In this document: positions 1 to 55,109 of the stretch, piece after piece
Position numbering within the stretch: position 1 is the first letter of the stretch
Layout of the letters: each line of letters begins with the position of its first letter
Assembly (NCBI RefSeq): GCF_003790525.1
Contig: NZ_CP033635.1
Strand: one strand, 5' to 3'
DNA: 64,000 bases
DNA from: Escherichia coli
Lineage (GTDB): Bacteria > Pseudomonadota > Gammaproteobacteria > Enterobacterales > Enterobacteriaceae
Notes under the pieces: model-generated
What the model saw: the letters and a program-made list of their open reading frames with translations, nothing else
Told to the model about the DNA's origin: nothing
The model's database searches: none
Made by a program: the position numbers and the translations under genes

Positions 1-2894
1 GGATCACGATGGACGGCAAACCCTGGCCGAGCGGAGCATTGACGCTGGCCTGGATACCGGAACAGGACGTTGGCGGCAAAGACAATAAACGCAGTGACGA
101 ACTCCGGATTCGTGCCAGTAATCTGGAGCTGGCAGGCCTGGAGGGCGTACGCCCGTTGGCCGCGAAACTTTCACCTGCACTGGGTGATGTTTGGCGCTCC
201 ACACAACCGAGCGGCAAGATTAACACTCTGGCGCTGGATATCCCGCTTCAGGCGGCAGACAAGACCCGTTTTCAGGCATCGTGGAGCGATCTGGCCTGGA
301 AGCAATGGAAATTATTACCGGGTGCGGAACACTTCTCCGGGACGCTTTCCGGCAGCGTAGAAAATGGTTTGCTTACTGCGTCGATGAAGCAGGCAAAGAT
401 GCCTTACGAAACGGTATTCCGCGCGCCACTGGAAATCGCCGACGGCCAGGCAACGATAAGCTGGCTGAACAATGACAAAGGTTTCCAGCTGGATGGACGT
501 AATATTGACGTTAAAGCCAAAGCCGTCCATGCGCGCGGCGGTTTTCGTTACCTGCAACCTGCTAACGATGAACCCTGGCTGGGGATTCTGGCTGGCATCA
601 GTACCGACGATGGTTCACAAGCCTGGCGCTATTTCCCGGAAAACTTGATGGGTAAAGACCTGGTTGATTACTTAAGTGGCGCGATTCAGGGCGGTGAAGC
701 GGATAACGCGACGCTGGTTTATGGTGGCAATCCGCAACTCTTCCCCTATAAACACAACGAAGGTCAGTTTGAAGTGCTGGTGCCGCTGCGCAACGCGAAG
801 TTTGCCTTCCAGCCGGACTGGCCTGCATTAACTAACCTTGATATTGAACTGGACTTTATTAACGACGGTTTATGGATGAAAACCGATGGCGTTAATCTGG
901 GCGGCGTGCGTGCGAGTAATCTCACCGCAGTGATCCCTGACTACTCAAAAGAAAAACTGCTGATTGACGCTGACATTAAAGGCCCGGGTAAAGCCGTTGG
1001 CCCTTACTTTGATGAGACACCGCTGAAAGATTCTCTGGGGGCGACCCTGCAAGAACTCCAGCTCGACGGCGATGTGAATGCTCGCTTACATCTCGATATT
1101 CCGCTGAACGGCGAACTGGTAACCGCGAAAGGTGAAGTGACGCTGCGTAATAACAGTCTGTTTATCAAACCACTCGACAGCACCCTGAAAAATTTGAGCG
1201 GTAAATTCAGCTTTATCAATGGCGATCTGCAAAGTGAACCACTGACAGCAAGCTGGTTTAATCAGCCGTTGAACGTGGATTTTTCCACCAAAGAAGGGGC
1301 AAAAGCCTACCAGGTCGCGGTGAATCTCAACGGTAACTGGCAACCAGCGAAAACCGGCGTTCTGCCTGAAGCGGTGAACGAAGCATTAAGTGGCAGCGTG
1401 GCGTGGGATGGTAAAGTGGGCATTGAGCTGCCTTATCATGCTGGCGCGACGTATAACGTAGAGCTGAATGGCGATTTGAAGAATGTGAGCAGTCACTTAC
1501 CTTCACCGTTAGCCAAACCTGCGGGTGAACCACTACCGGTAAACGTTAAGGTTGATGGCAATCTCAACAGCTTTGAATTAACCGGACAGGCTGGTGCGGA
1601 TAACCATTTCAATAGCCGCTGGTTGCTCGGTCAAAAGCTGACGCTCGATCGTGCTATATGGGCGGCAGACAGTAAAACGCTCCCGCCGTTGCCGGAACAA
1701 AGTGGCGTTGAACTCAATATGCCGCCGATGAATGGTGCCGAGTGGCTGGCCCTGTTCCAGAAAGGCGCGGCGGAGAGTGTCGGTGGTGCAGCGAGTTTCC
1801 CACAACACATAACGTTACGTACGCCTATGTTGTCGCTGGGAAATCAGCAATGGAATAACCTGAGCATTGTTTCGCAACCGACGGCAAATGGCACCCAGGT
1901 TGAGGCGCAAGGGCGTGAAATCAACGCCACGCTGGCGATGCGTAATAACGCGCCGTGGCTGGCGAATATCAAATATCTTTATTACAACCCAAGCGTGCCG
2001 AAAACTCATGGTGACTCAACGAATTCATCACCTTTCCTGACAACGGAGCGCATTAGCTTCCGTGGCTGGCCGGACGCACAAATACGATGCGCAGAGTGCT
2101 GGTTCTGGGGGCAAAAATTCGGGCGCATTGACAGTGATATCACCATTTCTGGCAATACATTAACGCTGACTAATGGACTGATTGATACTGGTTTTTCGCG
2201 GCTCACTGCCGATGGTGAATGGGTTAACAATCCGGGAAATGAACGCACTTCGCTGAAAGGAAAACTGCGTGGGCAGAAAATTGATGCCGCCGCAGAATTT
2301 TTTGGTGTCACGACGCCCATACGGCAGTCGTCATTTAATGTGGATTACGATTTACACTGGCGCAAAGCACCCTGGCAACCAGATGAGGCGACGTTGAATG
2401 GCATCATTCATACTCAACTGGGCAAAGGCGAAATTACCGAAATCAATACCGGACATGCCGGGCAATTGCTGCGCTTATTGAGCGTTGATGCCCTGATGCG
2501 TAAGCTGCGTTTTGATTTCAGAGACACTTTTGGCGAAGGGTTCTATTTTGACTCCATTCGCAGCACCGCGTGGATTAAAGACGGCGTTATGCACACCGAC
2601 GACACGCTGGTGGATGGCCTGGAAGCGGACATCGCTATGAAAGGGTCGGTAAATCTGGTACGTCGCGACCTGAATATGGAAGCGGTTGTCGCACCAGAGA
2701 TTTCTGCGACGGTGGGTGTGGCTGCGGCCTTTGCGGTTAACCCCATTGTTGGCGCGGCAGTGTTTGCCGCCAGTAAAGTGCTGGGACCGCTGTGGAGCAA
2801 AGTCTCCATTTTGCGCTATCACATTTCGGGTCCGCTGGACGATCCGCAAATCAACGAAGTGTTGCGACAACCGCGTAAAGAAAAAGCGCAATGA
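1..2894 (+). CDS. yhdP: AsmA-family inner membrane protein YhdP, C-terminal ~960 codons (5' end lies outside window)
   Basis: Open frame from window edge to stop at 2892-2894; translated sequence and position upstream of tldD match recalled E. coli YhdP. Confidence 0.85.
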   Translation, partial: ITMDGKPWPSGALTLAWIPEQDVGGKDNKRSDELRIRASNLELAGLEGVRPLAAKLSPALGDVWRSTQPSGKINTLALDIPLQAADKTRFQASWSDLAWKQWKLLPGAEHFSGTLSGSVENGLLTASMKQAKMPYETVFRAPLEIADGQATISWLNNDKGFQLDGRNIDVKAKAVHARGGFRYLQPANDEPWLGILAGISTDDGSQAWRYFPENLMGKDLVDYLSGAIQGGEADNATLVYGGNPQLFPYKHNEGQFEVLVPLRNAKFAFQPDWPALTNLDIELDFINDGLWMKTDGVNLGGVRASNLTAVIPDYSKEKLLIDADIKGPGKAVGPYFDETPLKDSLGATLQELQLDGDVNARLHLDIPLNGELVTAKGEVTLRNNSLFIKPLDSTLKNLSGKFSFINGDLQSEPLTASWFNQPLNVDFSTKEGAKAYQVAVNLNGNWQPAKTGVLPEAVNEALSGSVAWDGKVGIELPYHAGATYNVELNGDLKNVSSHLPSPLAKPAGEPLPVNVKVDGNLNSFELTGQAGADNHFNSRWLLGQKLTLDRAIWAADSKTLPPLPEQSGVELNMPPMNGAEWLALFQKGAAESVGGAASFPQHITLRTPMLSLGNQQWNNLSIVSQPTANGTQVEAQGREINATLAMRNNAPWLANIKYLYYNPSVPKTHGDSTNSSPFLTTERISFRGWPDAQIRCAECWFWGQKFGRIDSDITISGNTLTLTNGLIDTGFSRLTADGEWVNNPGNERTSLKGKLRGQKIDAAAEFFGVTTPIRQSSFNVDYDLHWRKAPWQPDEATLNGIIHTQLGKGEITEINTGHAGQLLRLLSVDALMRKLRFDFRDTFGEGFYFDSIRSTAWIKDGVMHTDDTLVDGLEADIAMKGSVNLVRRDLNMEAVVAPEISATVGVAAAFAVNPIVGAAVFAASKVLGPLWSKVSILRYHISGPLDDPQINEVLRQPRKEKAQ

Positions 2895-4622: not shown

Positions 4623-5552
4623 TTACTTCTCTTTCCCGCGCCCGTGCATCTCCTGAAACAATTTACCGACCTCAACAAAATAATCCGTCAGCGAGTTGAT
4701 CACGACCTGTACCTTCAGCGGTAGCTTATCTTTTTCGGTATACAACGCATAAACCGGGCGTGGATCTGACTGGTAACGCGGCAGCAGGATCTCCAGTTCC
4801 CCGCGATTGATCTCGTTGATCACCCACATCAGCGGCACGTAGGCGATCCCGGCACCCGCCGTCAGCCAGCGCACCAGCGTCATCGGATCATTAGTCACAA
4901 ATCTTCCTTGTGGGATCAGGCGAGTCGAGATCCCTTCCGGTGCGATCAGTTCAAATTCATTGTCGGGCCGCACGCTGTATTCAAGCCATGAATGACTACT
5001 CAAATCGGCGGGTTTTTCCGGTATGCCGTATTGTGTGAGATAGCTTTTCGCGGCGCACACCACCATCGGCATCGCGCCCAGACGGCGGGAAAACAGGCTG
5101 GAATCCTGCAACGCGCCGACGCGGATCACCACATCCAGACCATCGGCAATCAGGTCGGGGGCAGGAATTCCGGTAACCAGATTGACGCTCAAACCTGGGT
5201 ATTCTTTCAGCATTTTTGCTGTCAGCCCGGCGAGAACATTTTGTGCCATAGTTGAAGAACAGCCAATGCGCAGCGTCCCGATGGGGGTGTTATTGAAGGC
5301 ATACAGTTGCTCATGAACATCCTGCACTTCATGGAGCATCCGACGGCAGCCCTGGTAGTAAATTCTACCGGCTTCGGTCAGGCCAATGCTGCGTGTGCTA
5401 CGGTTTAACAGCTTTACCTGTAACTCATCTTCCAGTTTTGACACCGTCTGACTGATGGACGAAACGCTCATCTGTAGCTGTCTGGCGGCGGCGGTAAAAG
5501 AGCCAAATTCAACTACTTTGGCAAACACCGACATGCGTTTTAGTCGTTCCAT
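4623..5552 (-). CDS. aaeR: LysR-family transcriptional regulator AaeR (309 aa)
   Basis: ORF with N-terminal HTH typical of LysR regulators; divergent from aaeXAB as in E. coli. Confidence 0.93.
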   Translation of the reverse strand: MERLKRMSVFAKVVEFGSFTAAARQLQMSVSSISQTVSKLEDELQVKLLNRSTRSIGLTEAGRIYYQGCRRMLHEVQDVHEQLYAFNNTPIGTLRIGCSSTMAQNVLAGLTAKMLKEYPGLSVNLVTGIPAPDLIADGLDVVIRVGALQDSSLFSRRLGAMPMVVCAAKSYLTQYGIPEKPADLSSHSWLEYSVRPDNEFELIAPEGISTRLIPQGRFVTNDPMTLVRWLTAGAGIAYVPLMWVINEINRGELEILLPRYQSDPRPVYALYTEKDKLPLKVQVVINSLTDYFVEVGKLFQEMHGRGKEK

Positions 5553-45578: not shown

Positions 45579-46303
45579 GTAAAAGCCGCTTAACGGTGTT
45601 TAGTTTCGTTCGCCGTTTTCTTCTGCGGTTAATGGTTGTCCTCGCCGTTTTCTGGGGCGGGGGCATCGCGTTGTTTAGCGTTGCGCCTGTTCCCTTCTCA
45701 GCGGTAATGGTTGAGCGGCAAGTCAGCGCCTGGCTGCATGGCAATTTTCGTTACGTGGCACATTCTGACTGGGTCAGTATGGATCAAATCTCGCCGTGGA
45801 TGGGACTGGCGGTGATTGCCGCAGAAGATCAGAAATTTCCTGAGCACTGGGGCTTTGATGTCGCTTCCATTGAGCAAGCCCTGGCGCACAACGAACGCAA
45901 TGAAAACCGTATTCGCGGTGCGTCAACGATTTCTCAGCAGACAGCCAAAAATCTCTTTTTATGGGATGGGCGCAGCTGGGTTCGAAAAGGGCTGGAAGCC
46001 GGATTAACGCTGGGGATAGAAACGGTCTGGAGCAAAAAGCGTATCCTGACGGTTTACCTGAATATCGCCGAATTTGGCGACGGTGTGTTTGGCGTCGAAG
46101 CTGCGGCACAACGTTATTTCCACAAACCCGCGAGCAAGCTTACCCGGTCGGAAGCTGCATTACTGGCAGCTGTATTACCTAATCCACTTCGTTTCAAAGT
46201 CTCCGCGCCATCGGGCTACGTGCGTAGCCGTCAGGCGTGGATTTTACGGCAGATGTATCAGTTAGGCGGTGAGCCGTTTATGCAACAACACCAGCTTGAT
46301 TAA
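45575..46303 (+). CDS. mtgA: Monofunctional peptidoglycan glycosyltransferase MtgA (242 aa)
   Basis: Full ORF overlapping the elbB stop; transglycosylase motifs ([13 protein letters not shown]); recognised as MtgA. Confidence 0.95.
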
Positions 46304-46932
46304 GCTTCGCGCGAAGTGAGGGCCAGCGTTTTGCTCTCACGAGGTTGCAGATCTTTCTGCAGGGCAATAGCCAGCGCCGGTTGGGCGATAAATCGTTTCC
46401 ACAACCGCTCTTGCTTACGCAGACAACACCACTTCGACCAGGTCGCCAGTGGAATCAATGTGCTTTCACCAATGTTGTCGCAGACGACGGGGATAACCTC
46501 TGACTCACTGATGCGATGACAAAGGATATTCTGCGGCTTCAGCGACATCGTCACGATACGGTTATCCTGTAAATAACGCTTCAGCTGTTTCAGTAGCTGG
46601 CGCAGTTGTGCAATGTCTTCTTCGTAACGGCATTGTTCAGCAAATTCGGTCAGCGTAATGGAGGGCTTGCCGTCAAAATCTGCAATCACATCGTAGACAT
46701 AACCGGTTCCGCAATCCGTCTCAACGGTACCGTGATAGCGCGGTATTCCACTCCAGTCTTTTAACCGGCGACCAAGATGCGCGTAGTACTTTAACTCACG
46801 GCGGATCTCTTTATCGCCACCATCGCCACGATGGTAGACAATCTTGATACAGCGTTGGGCATCTTCCGGATGCGCATAACATTTCCGATGTCTTCCGGTG
46901 CCCAGGGGACTTTGTTCAGATAAGCGAATCAT
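46300..46932 (-). CDS. yrbL: PhoP-regulated protein YrbL (210 aa)
   Basis: Internal Met [21 protein letters not shown]... of track ORF 46300..46989; recognised as YrbL. Confidence 0.88.
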
Positions 46933-46982
46933 GCCATCTCCTGGAAATATTTTCTGACGATCTCCAGTATGGTCGATTAACT

Positions 46983-46999
46983 TAAACAAAACCTAAACA
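46983..46999 (-). promoter_or_regulatory. PhoP box (direct repeat TGTTTA-N5-TGTTTA) upstream of yrbL
   Basis: Minus strand reads TGTTTAggtttTGTTTA ~50-65 nt upstream of the yrbL start codon. Confidence 0.7.
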
Positions 47000-47145
47000 A
47001 TGCCTCTTAAGGTTTTCTTAAGGTTCTTCTGAAAGTAAAAAGCGCACAAAATGTACAAATGACGTTGATTGAGAACGATTTCAGTACGTGATTTTCTTAT
47101 TGTCGGGGGGAGTTTGAAGGGAGTTGTATGTCAAAGTGATGAAGA

Positions 47146-47418
47146 TTAATCTTCATCAAAACCAGAATTAAAGAGGGCGATAACGGCGGCCAGTGCTTCC
47201 TCTTCCTGTGGACCGGTCGCTTCAACTTCAATCTGCCGTCCTTTGGCAGAATCCAACATCAGCAGCGCAATAACGCTGTTGGCTTCAGCCTCGGTGCCTT
47301 CGTCATTACGTAACAGCACTTCAGCGTCAAAACCTTGCATTAATTCAAACAGCTTCATTGCAGGCCGGGCATGCATGCCCAGCTTGTTTGTGATTTCAAC
47401 AGTTTGCTTGACGGTCAT
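47146..47418 (-). CDS. npr: Nitrogen-PTS phosphocarrier protein NPr (90 aa)
   Basis: Full ORF with HPr-like active-site region; recognised as NPr/PtsO. Confidence 0.95.
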
Positions 47419-48269
47419 GGTTTACGTTTTTCCAGCGTACGATGGCGTGACTGGACGTTTTTACCGCGCGAGCGGAAGTAGTCAGCCAGTTGCTCTGCAA
47501 TATACACCGAACGGTGCTTCCCGCCGGTACAACCAATGGCGACCGTCAGGTAGCTACGGTTGTTGGTTTCCAGCATAGGTAACCATAGCTCAAGATAGCT
47601 TCGCGTCTGGTAGATAAAATTGTGTACTTCTGTGTGGCGGTCGAGGAACGCGGCGACAGGCTTATCCAGACCTGTCATTGGACGCAGTTTCGGATCCCAG
47701 TGCGGGTTCGGCAAGAAGCGCACGTCAAAGACGTAATCTGCATCGATAGGGATACCGTGTTTGAAGCCGAAAGACTCAAAGACCATGGTCAGTTCGCGTT
47801 CACGTTTACCCAGCAGACGGGTACGCAGCATTTCAGCCAGCTCGTGAACGGACATTTCTGAGGTATCGACAATCAGATCCGCTCGCGAACGCAGAGGCTC
47901 CAGCAAATCGCTTTCTTTGTCGATAGCACTTTCCAGCGACAGGTTTTTGCTGGAAAGCGGATGCAGTCGGCGCGTGTCACTGTAACGACGAATTAAGGTA
48001 TTACGGTCGGCATCCAGGAACAGTAGTTGCGGTGAGAAAGCGTCAGGCAGGTTACTCATCGCCTGTTCGAATATTTCTGGTGACTCCGGCATATTACGAA
48101 CATCAATGCTGACGGCGGCAGAAATCTCGCGATCGGCCAGAGTTCGAGCCAGATCGGGTAACAACACTACGGGAAGGTTATCCACGCAGTAAAAACCCAT
48201 ATCTTCCAGCGCACGCAGGGCGACAGATTTACCTGAACCTGAACGTCCGCTGACGATCATCAGTACCAT
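47415..48269 (-). CDS. rapZ: RNase adaptor protein RapZ/YhbJ (284 aa)
   Basis: Walker A GRSGSGKS; recognised as RapZ. Confidence 0.95.
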
Positions 48270-54131: not shown

Positions 54132-55109
54132 TTATTCAACGAGTATTGGCGATAACCAGTACAACATCGCCAGCCATACGATAAATCCGCCAGTTAATAA
54201 TACCCCTACACCACGGCCCGATTGCGGGGAGCGCCGCCAGCACAGCAACGCAAAAATAATGCTCACCAGCAACATCACGCTGTAGTCACGACTGTACGCC
54301 AGTGGATCAATCTCTCCTGGCGTTATCAGCGCGGGTAAACCCAACACGATGACAATATTAAAGATGTTTGCGCCAATAATATTTCCGACCGCAATGTCGT
54401 TTTCACCTTTGCGAACCCCCGCTATTGCGGTTGCCAGTTCCGGCAGGCTGGTTCCGATAGCAATTGCCGTCAGACCCATCGTCAACTCGCTGATGGCAAA
54501 GTAATTCGCCAGCACCGTGGCGTTATCAACCACCATCCGCGTGGCCACTGGCATGATGATAAGCGCAATGCCGAGCCATAAAAACGCGACGGGCAATCCG
54601 CCGTCACGCGGCAGCTCTGCAAGCTGCTCTCTGGTCAGGCTGTCAGTCCCCTGACGTTCAGCCTGACGTGCAAGTTTAACAATGAACAGCAGCCATAGCA
54701 CAGCCAGAAAGAGGAGAAAGATACCATCGCTGCGACTAAGTTGTCCGTCATAGAGTACGGAACCGGCCACCACGCTGACCAACAACATTAAGGGTAATTC
54801 ACGGCGTAGAACATCGGAATGGACGGTAAAAGGACGAACCAGCGCAGCCAGACCGAGGATCAGCAATATATTGATAATGTTTGAGCCGAGGGCTGTACCA
54901 ACGGCTAAATCGCGTTGTTCGTGCAGAGACGCGGCAAGCGAGACGATGATTTCTGGTAACGATGTACCAATACTGACCACCGTCATGCCGATGATTAGCG
55001 GCGGGATGCCAAAGGTTCGGCAAAGAATAGACGCGGCAAAAACCAGGCGGTCGGCACTGTAAACGACCAAAAGTAAACCAACAATTAACAGTGCCGTAGC
55101 TAAAAGCAT
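54132..55109 (-). CDS. yrbG: Ca2+/Na+ antiporter-family membrane protein YrbG (325 aa)
   Basis: Polytopic membrane ORF; recognised as YrbG. Confidence 0.93.
   Translation of the reverse strand: MLLATALLIVGLLLVVYSADRLVFAASILCRTFGIPPLIIGMTVVSIGTSLPEIIVSLAASLHEQRDLAVGTALGSNIINILLILGLAALVRPFTVHSDVLRRELPLMLLVSVVAGSVLYDGQLSRSDGIFLLFLAVLWLLFIVKLARQAERQGTDSLTREQLAELPRDGGLPVAFLWLGIALIIMPVATRMVVDNATVLANYFAISELTMGLTAIAIGTSLPELATAIAGVRKGENDIAVGNIIGANIFNIVIVLGLPALITPGEIDPLAYSRDYSVMLLVSIIFALLCWRRSPQSGRGVGVLLTGGFIVWLAMLYWLSPILVE

Follow-up and report, generated by a model that had tools for sequence, protein, structure and literature searches.

The closest described relative of the site reported here is the PhoP box of the Salmonella yrbL promoter, TCGTTTAGGTTTTGTTTAA, which Zwir et al. 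2012 (PMC3335776) assign to architecture I, that is, a single box in direct orientation over the -35 region, with predicted class II activation. It is the only promoter there whose box is 11 nt away from the -10 hexamer instead of 12, and its elements are tabulated as a -10 of CATACT, a -35 of TAGGTT, an 18-nt spacer, a distance of 27 nt from the box centre to +1, and a leader of 32 nt (PMC3335776). S1 mapping detected a single start, present only in the wild type at low Mg2+ (Fig. S1A), and the box is protected by PhoP-P in a DNase I footprint (Fig. S3A, PMC3335776). For Shigella flexneri 2a, Lin et al. 2018 (PMC5775216) give the yrbL PhoP box as tTGTTTAggtttTGTTTAa; a promoter fragment carrying this sequence is shifted by PhoP-P in EMSA, and yrbL expression in a phoPQ deletion is 0.02x that of the parent, a 50-fold drop (PMC5775216). 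In an optogenetic study, E. coli yrbL reporters responded to induced PhoP, with the lowest PhoP sensitivity of the reporter set.

Among PhoP-activated promoters of other genes, the canonical class II examples, mgtA and phoP, likewise carry a single direct (T/G)GTTTA-N5-(T/G)GTTTA repeat over the -35 region, one helical turn upstream of the -10 (PMC3335776). They differ from yrbL in spacing, with 12 rather than 11 nt between box and -10 and 33 rather than 27 nt between box centre and +1 (PMC3335776), and in having no reported PmrA box; mgtA also has a 264-nt regulatory leader, whereas that of yrbL is short. The pmrD promoter (a "bi-fan," activated by PhoP and repressed by PmrA) shares with yrbL the placement of a PhoP box at the -35 and of a PmrA box farther upstream for negative feedback, but its PhoP box belongs to a degenerate submotif (PMC3335776), and in Salmonella its PmrA and PhoP boxes are ~38 bp apart, as opposed to ~23-24 bp at yrbL.

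The window analyzed here (the whole stretch of E. coli chromosomal DNA, 64 kb in length) contains a site of this kind at 46983..46999, which we regard, with a probability of roughly 95%, as the PhoP-binding site of yrbL, in a sigma-70 promoter of class II ("architecture I") that PhoP activates. Our own analysis shows the motif, how rare it is, how it is placed, and how well it is conserved, and PhoP binding, dependence on PhoP and Mg2+, and repression by PmrA are taken from the literature, the yrbL PhoP box being an already known, published binding site. The plus-strand letters at these positions are TAAACAAAACCTAAACA; read on the minus strand, they form the direct repeat TGTTTA-GGTTT-TGTTTA (TGTTTAGGTTTTGTTTA), with an upstream half-site at 46994..46999 and a promoter-proximal half-site at 46983..46988, both on the minus strand. 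The box was recognized by reading the sequence, by pattern search, by position weight matrix, and through its orthologues. An initial annotation had claimed a TGTTTA-N5-TGTTTA repeat at 46983-46999 on the minus strand, and both the coordinates and the strand are right. In the orientation of yrbL, the site has no mismatches to (T/G)GTTTA-N5-(T/G)GTTTA, compared to eight on the reverse strand; its 3' end lies 50 nt upstream of the yrbL ATG, with both on the minus strand, and it corresponds to positions 3348385..3348401 in MG1655, where the -10 hexamer of the promoter occupies 3348413..3348418.

The downstream gene (46300..46932, minus strand; ORF list and RefSeq annotation) encodes a protein kinase-like domain protein of 210 aa that belongs to Pfam PF10707, a domain found on YrbL homologues. 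RefSeq names it "PhoP regulatory network protein YrbL" in strain SMS-3-5 and "protein kinase-like domain-containing protein YrbL" in MG1655 (b3207). The annotated gene order runs arcB-elbB-mtgA on one strand and yrbL-npr-rapZ-ptsN-hpf-rpoN on the other. Positions 46250..47450 match E. coli SMS-3-5 at 100% identity, and 5,425 of 5,426 complete E. coli genomes contain them. Over the upstream 231 nt (reaching into yrbL), a single base differs from K-12 MG1655, and because this base falls outside both the PhoP box and the neighboring PmrA box, results obtained in K-12 apply directly to the window.

The searches for yrbL also returned some observations on the gene family itself. On a human gut metagenome contig, two convergent genes of the YrbL family (PF10707) adjoin a Kdo-kinase-family gene (PF06293) and a glycosyltransferase, in what looks like an LPS-core context and may offer a hint to the function of the YrbL family; none of the yrbL promoter motifs occurs on this contig. 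In the assembly of Tannerella forsythia ATCC 43037, a 420-nt contig encodes a fragment 99% identical to E. coli YrbL and is almost certainly E. coli contamination of that assembly. In studies of RNA polymerase pausing, a "yrbL consensus elemental pause sequence" is used as a model (PMC11260103).

Extended by one flanking base on each side, the PhoP box of the window reads tTGTTTAggtttTGTTTAa and is identical to the Shigella 19-mer, leaving no difference between the two at box level; compared with flanks included, it departs from the published Salmonella box TCGTTTAGGTTTTGTTTAA by one base. Shigella lies phylogenetically within E. coli. The Salmonella enterica promoter resembles that of the window in the orthology of the gene, in its npr-yrbL-mtgA context, in its single direct PhoP box placed 11 nt from CATACT, and in TAGGTT, a leader of ~32 nt, and a PmrA box ~24 bp upstream. 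It differs in that the first half-site is CGTTTA rather than TGTTTA, that the second half-site is TATTTA in the Salmonella sequences fetched, and that one extra nucleotide lies between the -10 and the ATG. That yrbL is regulated by PhoPQ, with which the initial annotation had considered the repeat consistent, is supported by these correspondences to the Shigella box (PMC5775216) and to the footprinted box of Salmonella (PMC3335776).

To examine conservation, we scanned genomes for YrbL and aligned 12 sequences from orthologous loci in Escherichia species, Citrobacter, and S. enterica subsp. arizonae, and then widened the sample to 19 promoters with distant homologues from a protein search and their contigs. 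The 12-sequence alignment shows the intergenic region to consist of conserved islands amid variable sequence. The two PhoP half-sites have mean column identities of 0.90 and 0.89, with four of six columns invariant in each, and CATACT is fully conserved (mean column identity of 1.00, six of six columns invariant). Between them, the 11-nt spacer is invariant in length and variable in sequence (mean column identity of 0.69, with 2 of 11 columns invariant), and the far upstream region has a mean column identity of only 0.46 (2 of 74 columns invariant). CATACT occurs in all 12 aligned sequences and in 16 of the 19 promoters, and its distance from the box is 11 nt in every case. This phylogenetic footprint, in which box positions and the -10 are invariant and a spacer of fixed length drifts, fits a functional site.

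Across promoters, the box follows the consensus YRTTKA-N5-YRTTTA, with positions 3, 4, 10, and 14-17 invariant in 18 promoters. The perfect TGTTTA/TGTTTA pair is present in six of seven Escherichia sequences, and Citrobacter, Salmonella, Siccibacter, and Superficieibacter combine CGTTTA or TGTTGA with CATTTA or TATTTA. The Pluralibacter box is degenerate (AATTTG/AATTTA), and the Cedecea promoter has neither a PhoP box nor CATACT. As judged from these sequences, the canonical box is a feature of Escherichia that degenerates with phylogenetic distance, and in the more distant genera, where CATTTA, TATTTA, or AATTTA stands in the second half-site or, as in Cedecea, the box is absent, yrbL may have lost PhoP control or be under a weaker form of it. 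Within E. coli, a 101-bp promoter core is found in 5,421 of 5,426 complete genomes. Position 46988, the first base of the promoter-proximal half-site, is polymorphic: O157:H7 and B2 strains (a Nissle derivative and ST131) have CGTTTA in place of TGTTTA, and the B2 strains have an additional G-to-A change in the N5 spacer. CGTTTA is an accepted variant in the published PhoP submotifs (PMC3335776).

One of the promoters in the sample belongs to a non-syntenic yrbL copy (60% identity) of Enterobacter hormaechei, where positions 1375..1462 of the contig contain the box TGTTTA-ATGTC-CATTTA, a -10 of CATAAT, and a conserved upstream block described below, all at unchanged spacings. This copy is without a clean PmrA box, and its arrangement suggests that most of the promoter travelled with the gene.

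On the minus strand, the elements of the window's promoter follow one another in the order TGTTTAGGTTTTGTTTA, the 11-nt spacer AGTTAATCGAC, CATACT, GGAGATCGTCAGAAAATATTTCCAGGAGATGGC, and ATG. CATACT (46966..46971, minus strand), conserved as described and located 11 nt 3' of the PhoP box, with the same hexamer and distance as in Salmonella yrbL (PMC3335776), has no plausible competitor as the -10. Inside the PhoP box lies the nominal -35, TAGGTT (46990..46995, minus strand), which has only two of six matches to TTGACA and is separated from the -10 by an 18-nt spacer; the same TAGGTT is given as the -35 of Salmonella yrbL (PMC3335776). A generic sigma-70 scan of 46200..47500 found no promoter, as expected for a promoter that depends on an activator. 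The site presents the features of its class: a direct repeat, a single box in direct orientation over the -35 and 11 nt from the -10 (~12 nt in the class as a whole), a weak -35, and conserved geometry. Comparison with published promoter mapping, which the initial annotation had proposed, shows that both hexamers and the 11-nt distance match those of Salmonella yrbL exactly (PMC3335776).

The transcription start is predicted to lie within 46958..46964 on the minus strand. Transfer of the Salmonella S1 start would put it at 46963/46964, and the canonical distance of 5-7 nt after the -10 would put it at 46958..46961, so that the PhoP box would span approximately -35 to -19 or approximately -41 to -25, respectively; both placements are compatible with class II activation. 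In Salmonella, the mapped +1 is just 2 nt past CATACT, as opposed to 5-7 nt at most other PhoP promoters tabulated (PMC3335776), and because this distance is unusually short, the exact yrbL start is uncertain by a few nucleotides: either the Salmonella mapping is a few nucleotides off or the promoter is unusual. The supplements of the Cappable-seq, SMRT-Cappable-seq, Kim 2012, Conway 2014, 5'TNET-seq, and Shigella M90T data sets gave no yrbL start site. A mapped start at odds with the position of the box had been named in the initial annotation as the observation that would speak against it; the Salmonella start, transferred by way of the same 11-nt box-to--10 geometry, would instead accord with that position. 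The predicted 5' leader (46933..46964, minus strand; ~31-32 nt from the inferred start) is moderately conserved, with a mean column identity of 0.84, and contains the Shine-Dalgarno sequence AGGAG (46938..46942, minus strand) 5 nt before the ATG.

Two methylation sites fall in the same interval. A Dam site, GATC, at 46959..46962 lies on the inferred start and is not conserved outside E. coli, and a Dcm site (CCAGG, yrbL strand) at 46940..46944 overlaps the Shine-Dalgarno sequence; in one study, yrbL was among the genes most raised in a dcm deletion (+0.83 log2).

The alternative that fares best, although its probability is small, is that the repeat is a genuine PhoP site serving a promoter other than CATACT, either with another start site or in a repressing role. 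The atypical start in Salmonella, so close to CATACT, would leave some room for this, as would the conserved upstream block, which implies that there is more to the region than two known boxes. Against it, no hexamer other than CATACT is invariant in the interval from the box to the ATG, and its distance from the box is always 11 nt, the region offers no -35/-10 pair elsewhere, and Salmonella has a single, PhoP-dependent start (PMC3335776).

Upstream of the PhoP box, at a distance of 6 bp, there is a second repeat of the same overall layout. This PmrA/BasR-type box, CTTAAG-GTTTT-CTTAAG (CTTAAGGTTTTCTTAAG; 47006..47022, plus strand), can also be written as two 9-mers, CTTAAGGTT-TT-CTTAAGGTT, covering 47006..47025. 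It is unique in the window, where 0.06 occurrences would be expected even with one mismatch allowed. A PmrA box has been defined as a pair of XTTAAY hexamers with 5 nt between them, in which a TAA core is contacted (PMC10570014), and 47006..47022 conforms to this definition. According to the literature (including PMC3335776), PmrA binds and represses yrbL through a box ~24 bp from the PhoP box, so the PmrA/BasR box of yrbL, too, is already known; the centre-to-centre distance in the window is 23 bp. In the 12-sequence alignment, 14 of its 17 columns are invariant, and it is present with TTAA cores in 18 of the 19 promoters. The PmrA box consensus is YTTAAK-N5-YTTAAK. On the strand opposite yrbL, 15 promoters match it without mismatch, and the yrbL strand fits less well; these species variants indicate that the orientation of the box is opposite to that of the gene.

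In E. coli ST131 strain 4993, an 11-bp deletion (~47012..47022) removes exactly one PmrA repeat unit and leaves a single half-site, in what looks like slippage between direct repeats; the identity band to which this promoter belongs comprises 3 of the 5,421 genomes.

The presence of this second box bears on another reading, in which the repeat at 46983..46999 is mainly the target of a different regulator of the OmpR/PhoB family (for example, RstA or PmrA/BasR) and the PhoP dependence of yrbL is indirect. Members of this family bind similar 6-N5-6 direct repeats, a second such box is only 6 bp away, and yrbL has been reported to be under PmrA and Fur as well. The PmrA-type box is, however, separate and distinct, with its TTAA core, and PhoP-P itself protects the homologous box of Salmonella and shifts the Shigella fragment that contains the identical one. 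The response of the window to a matrix made solely from PhoP sites argues in the same direction. We built a PhoP log-odds matrix from seven published boxes of other genes, leaving yrbL out to avoid circularity, and the scan of the window with such a matrix, as the initial annotation had suggested, places the yrbL box first among ~128,000 positions (18.2 bits, z = 5.1). Taken together, this leaves the involvement of another family member as the main ligand very unlikely.

The second-best match to the matrix, TGTTAATTGTTGGTTTA (55074..55090, minus strand; 17.2 bits), falls within codons 7-12 of the CDS at 54132..55109, which we take to be yrbG from the gene order, and these codons encode a hydrophobic N-terminus. 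Allowing up to one mismatch to KGTTTA-N5-KGTTTA yields three matches in the 64-kb window, as opposed to 0.66 expected. The two PhoP-like matches other than the yrbL box (4739..4755 and 55074..55090) are both intragenic and were set aside as probably due to chance.

The exact pattern TGTTTA-N5-TGTTTA occurs once in the 64-kb window when both strands are searched, with 0.01 occurrences expected by chance (dinucleotide-preserving shuffles, 1 of 100 of which contained a match). That the repeat is itself a chance occurrence in A/T-rich intergenic DNA, with no regulatory role, is the least probable reading of all: the half-site is short and T-rich, and the two other near-matches, inside coding sequences, are probably fortuitous, but against so low an expectation, with an 11-nt distance to an invariant -10 that is fixed across genera while the spacer sequence drifts, and with binding and regulation published for identical or near-identical sites (PMC5775216, PMC3335776), the conservation pattern together with the published footprint and EMSA effectively refutes it.

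The most conserved part of the region is neither the PhoP box nor the PmrA box but a block farther upstream, TTGTACATTTnGTGCkCTTT, with a core of TGTACA-N4-GTGC (47039..47058, minus strand; ~75-94 nt upstream of the start site). In the 12 sequences from Escherichia, Citrobacter, and Salmonella, 18 of its 20 columns are invariant, and its flanks are not conserved. The core is unique in the 64-kb window, and it is found with zero to one mismatch in 17 of the 19 promoters, at a fixed distance of 84 nt (83-85 nt) from the -10; the non-syntenic yrbL copy of Enterobacter hormaechei is one of the 17. The block of C. amalonaticus is immediately preceded by an intrinsic terminator, which assigns the block to the control region of yrbL and not to the 3' end of npr.

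Several identities for the block were considered and rejected. As an RNA element, it yields only a meaningless snoRNA match in Rfam (E = 0.17) and a fold z-score of +0.45. If TACATT is taken for the -10 of a second sigma-70 promoter, a -35-like hexamer at 16-19 nt is lacking in each of 12 species, and the generic scan is empty. The AtoC operator is an inverted pair of the 20-bp sequence GCTATGCAGAAAWTTGCRCA, a consensus that we took from the region upstream of MG1655 atoD, where the site is presumably the AtoC operator; the block matches ~10 of 20 positions of one half-site and has no inverted partner. Comparison by hand with consensus sequences for sigma-54, CRP, RstA, the marbox, and Fis gave only partial, nonspecific matches. 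Fur was considered for both the block and the intergenic region, since yrbL is reported by Beauchene et al. 2015 to have a site in Fur ChIP-seq and to be regulated by Fur; the best match to the Fur box (GATAATGATAATCATTATC) in the npr-yrbL intergenic region (46933..47145) has 8 mismatches in 19 positions, no better than the window background, and a Fur site was rejected for lack of Fur-box similarity, although Fur ChIP and regulation are reported. It is conceivable, from its conservation and fixed position, that the block is the binding site of a third, undescribed regulator of yrbL, a suggestion that we offer only tentatively; if true, such a regulator might explain the reported Fur-dependent or PhoP-independent expression of yrbL.

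The arrangement of the PhoP box, the PmrA box, and the -10 points to a mechanism of the following kind. On sensing low Mg2+, cationic peptides, or acid pH, PhoQ would phosphorylate PhoP, and a PhoP-P dimer would occupy the two TGTTTA half-sites head-to-tail, the half-sites lying on one face of the helix because they are 11 bp apart. The repeat would take the place of the missing -35, ending 11 nt before CATACT, so that bound PhoP would recruit RNA polymerase to a promoter otherwise too weak; by analogy with mgtA, we infer that this recruitment would proceed by contact with sigma at the class II position. The product would be a yrbL mRNA with a leader of ~31-32 nt. From its box 6 bp farther upstream, PmrA/BasR would repress the same promoter as part of the PhoP-dependent PmrD-PmrA branch.

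The site was put forward in the initial annotation as a positive control for motif reading, and it has turned out to be just that: an ordinary box, correctly read and already published. Its value lies in calibration, since a reader with access to the sequence alone placed a 17-bp site with the right strand and the right gene, which supports trust in the other motif readings from that source. For the organism, the yrbL locus represents a textbook promoter with two inputs, PhoP as activator and PmrA as repressor, that controls a gene for a kinase-like protein.
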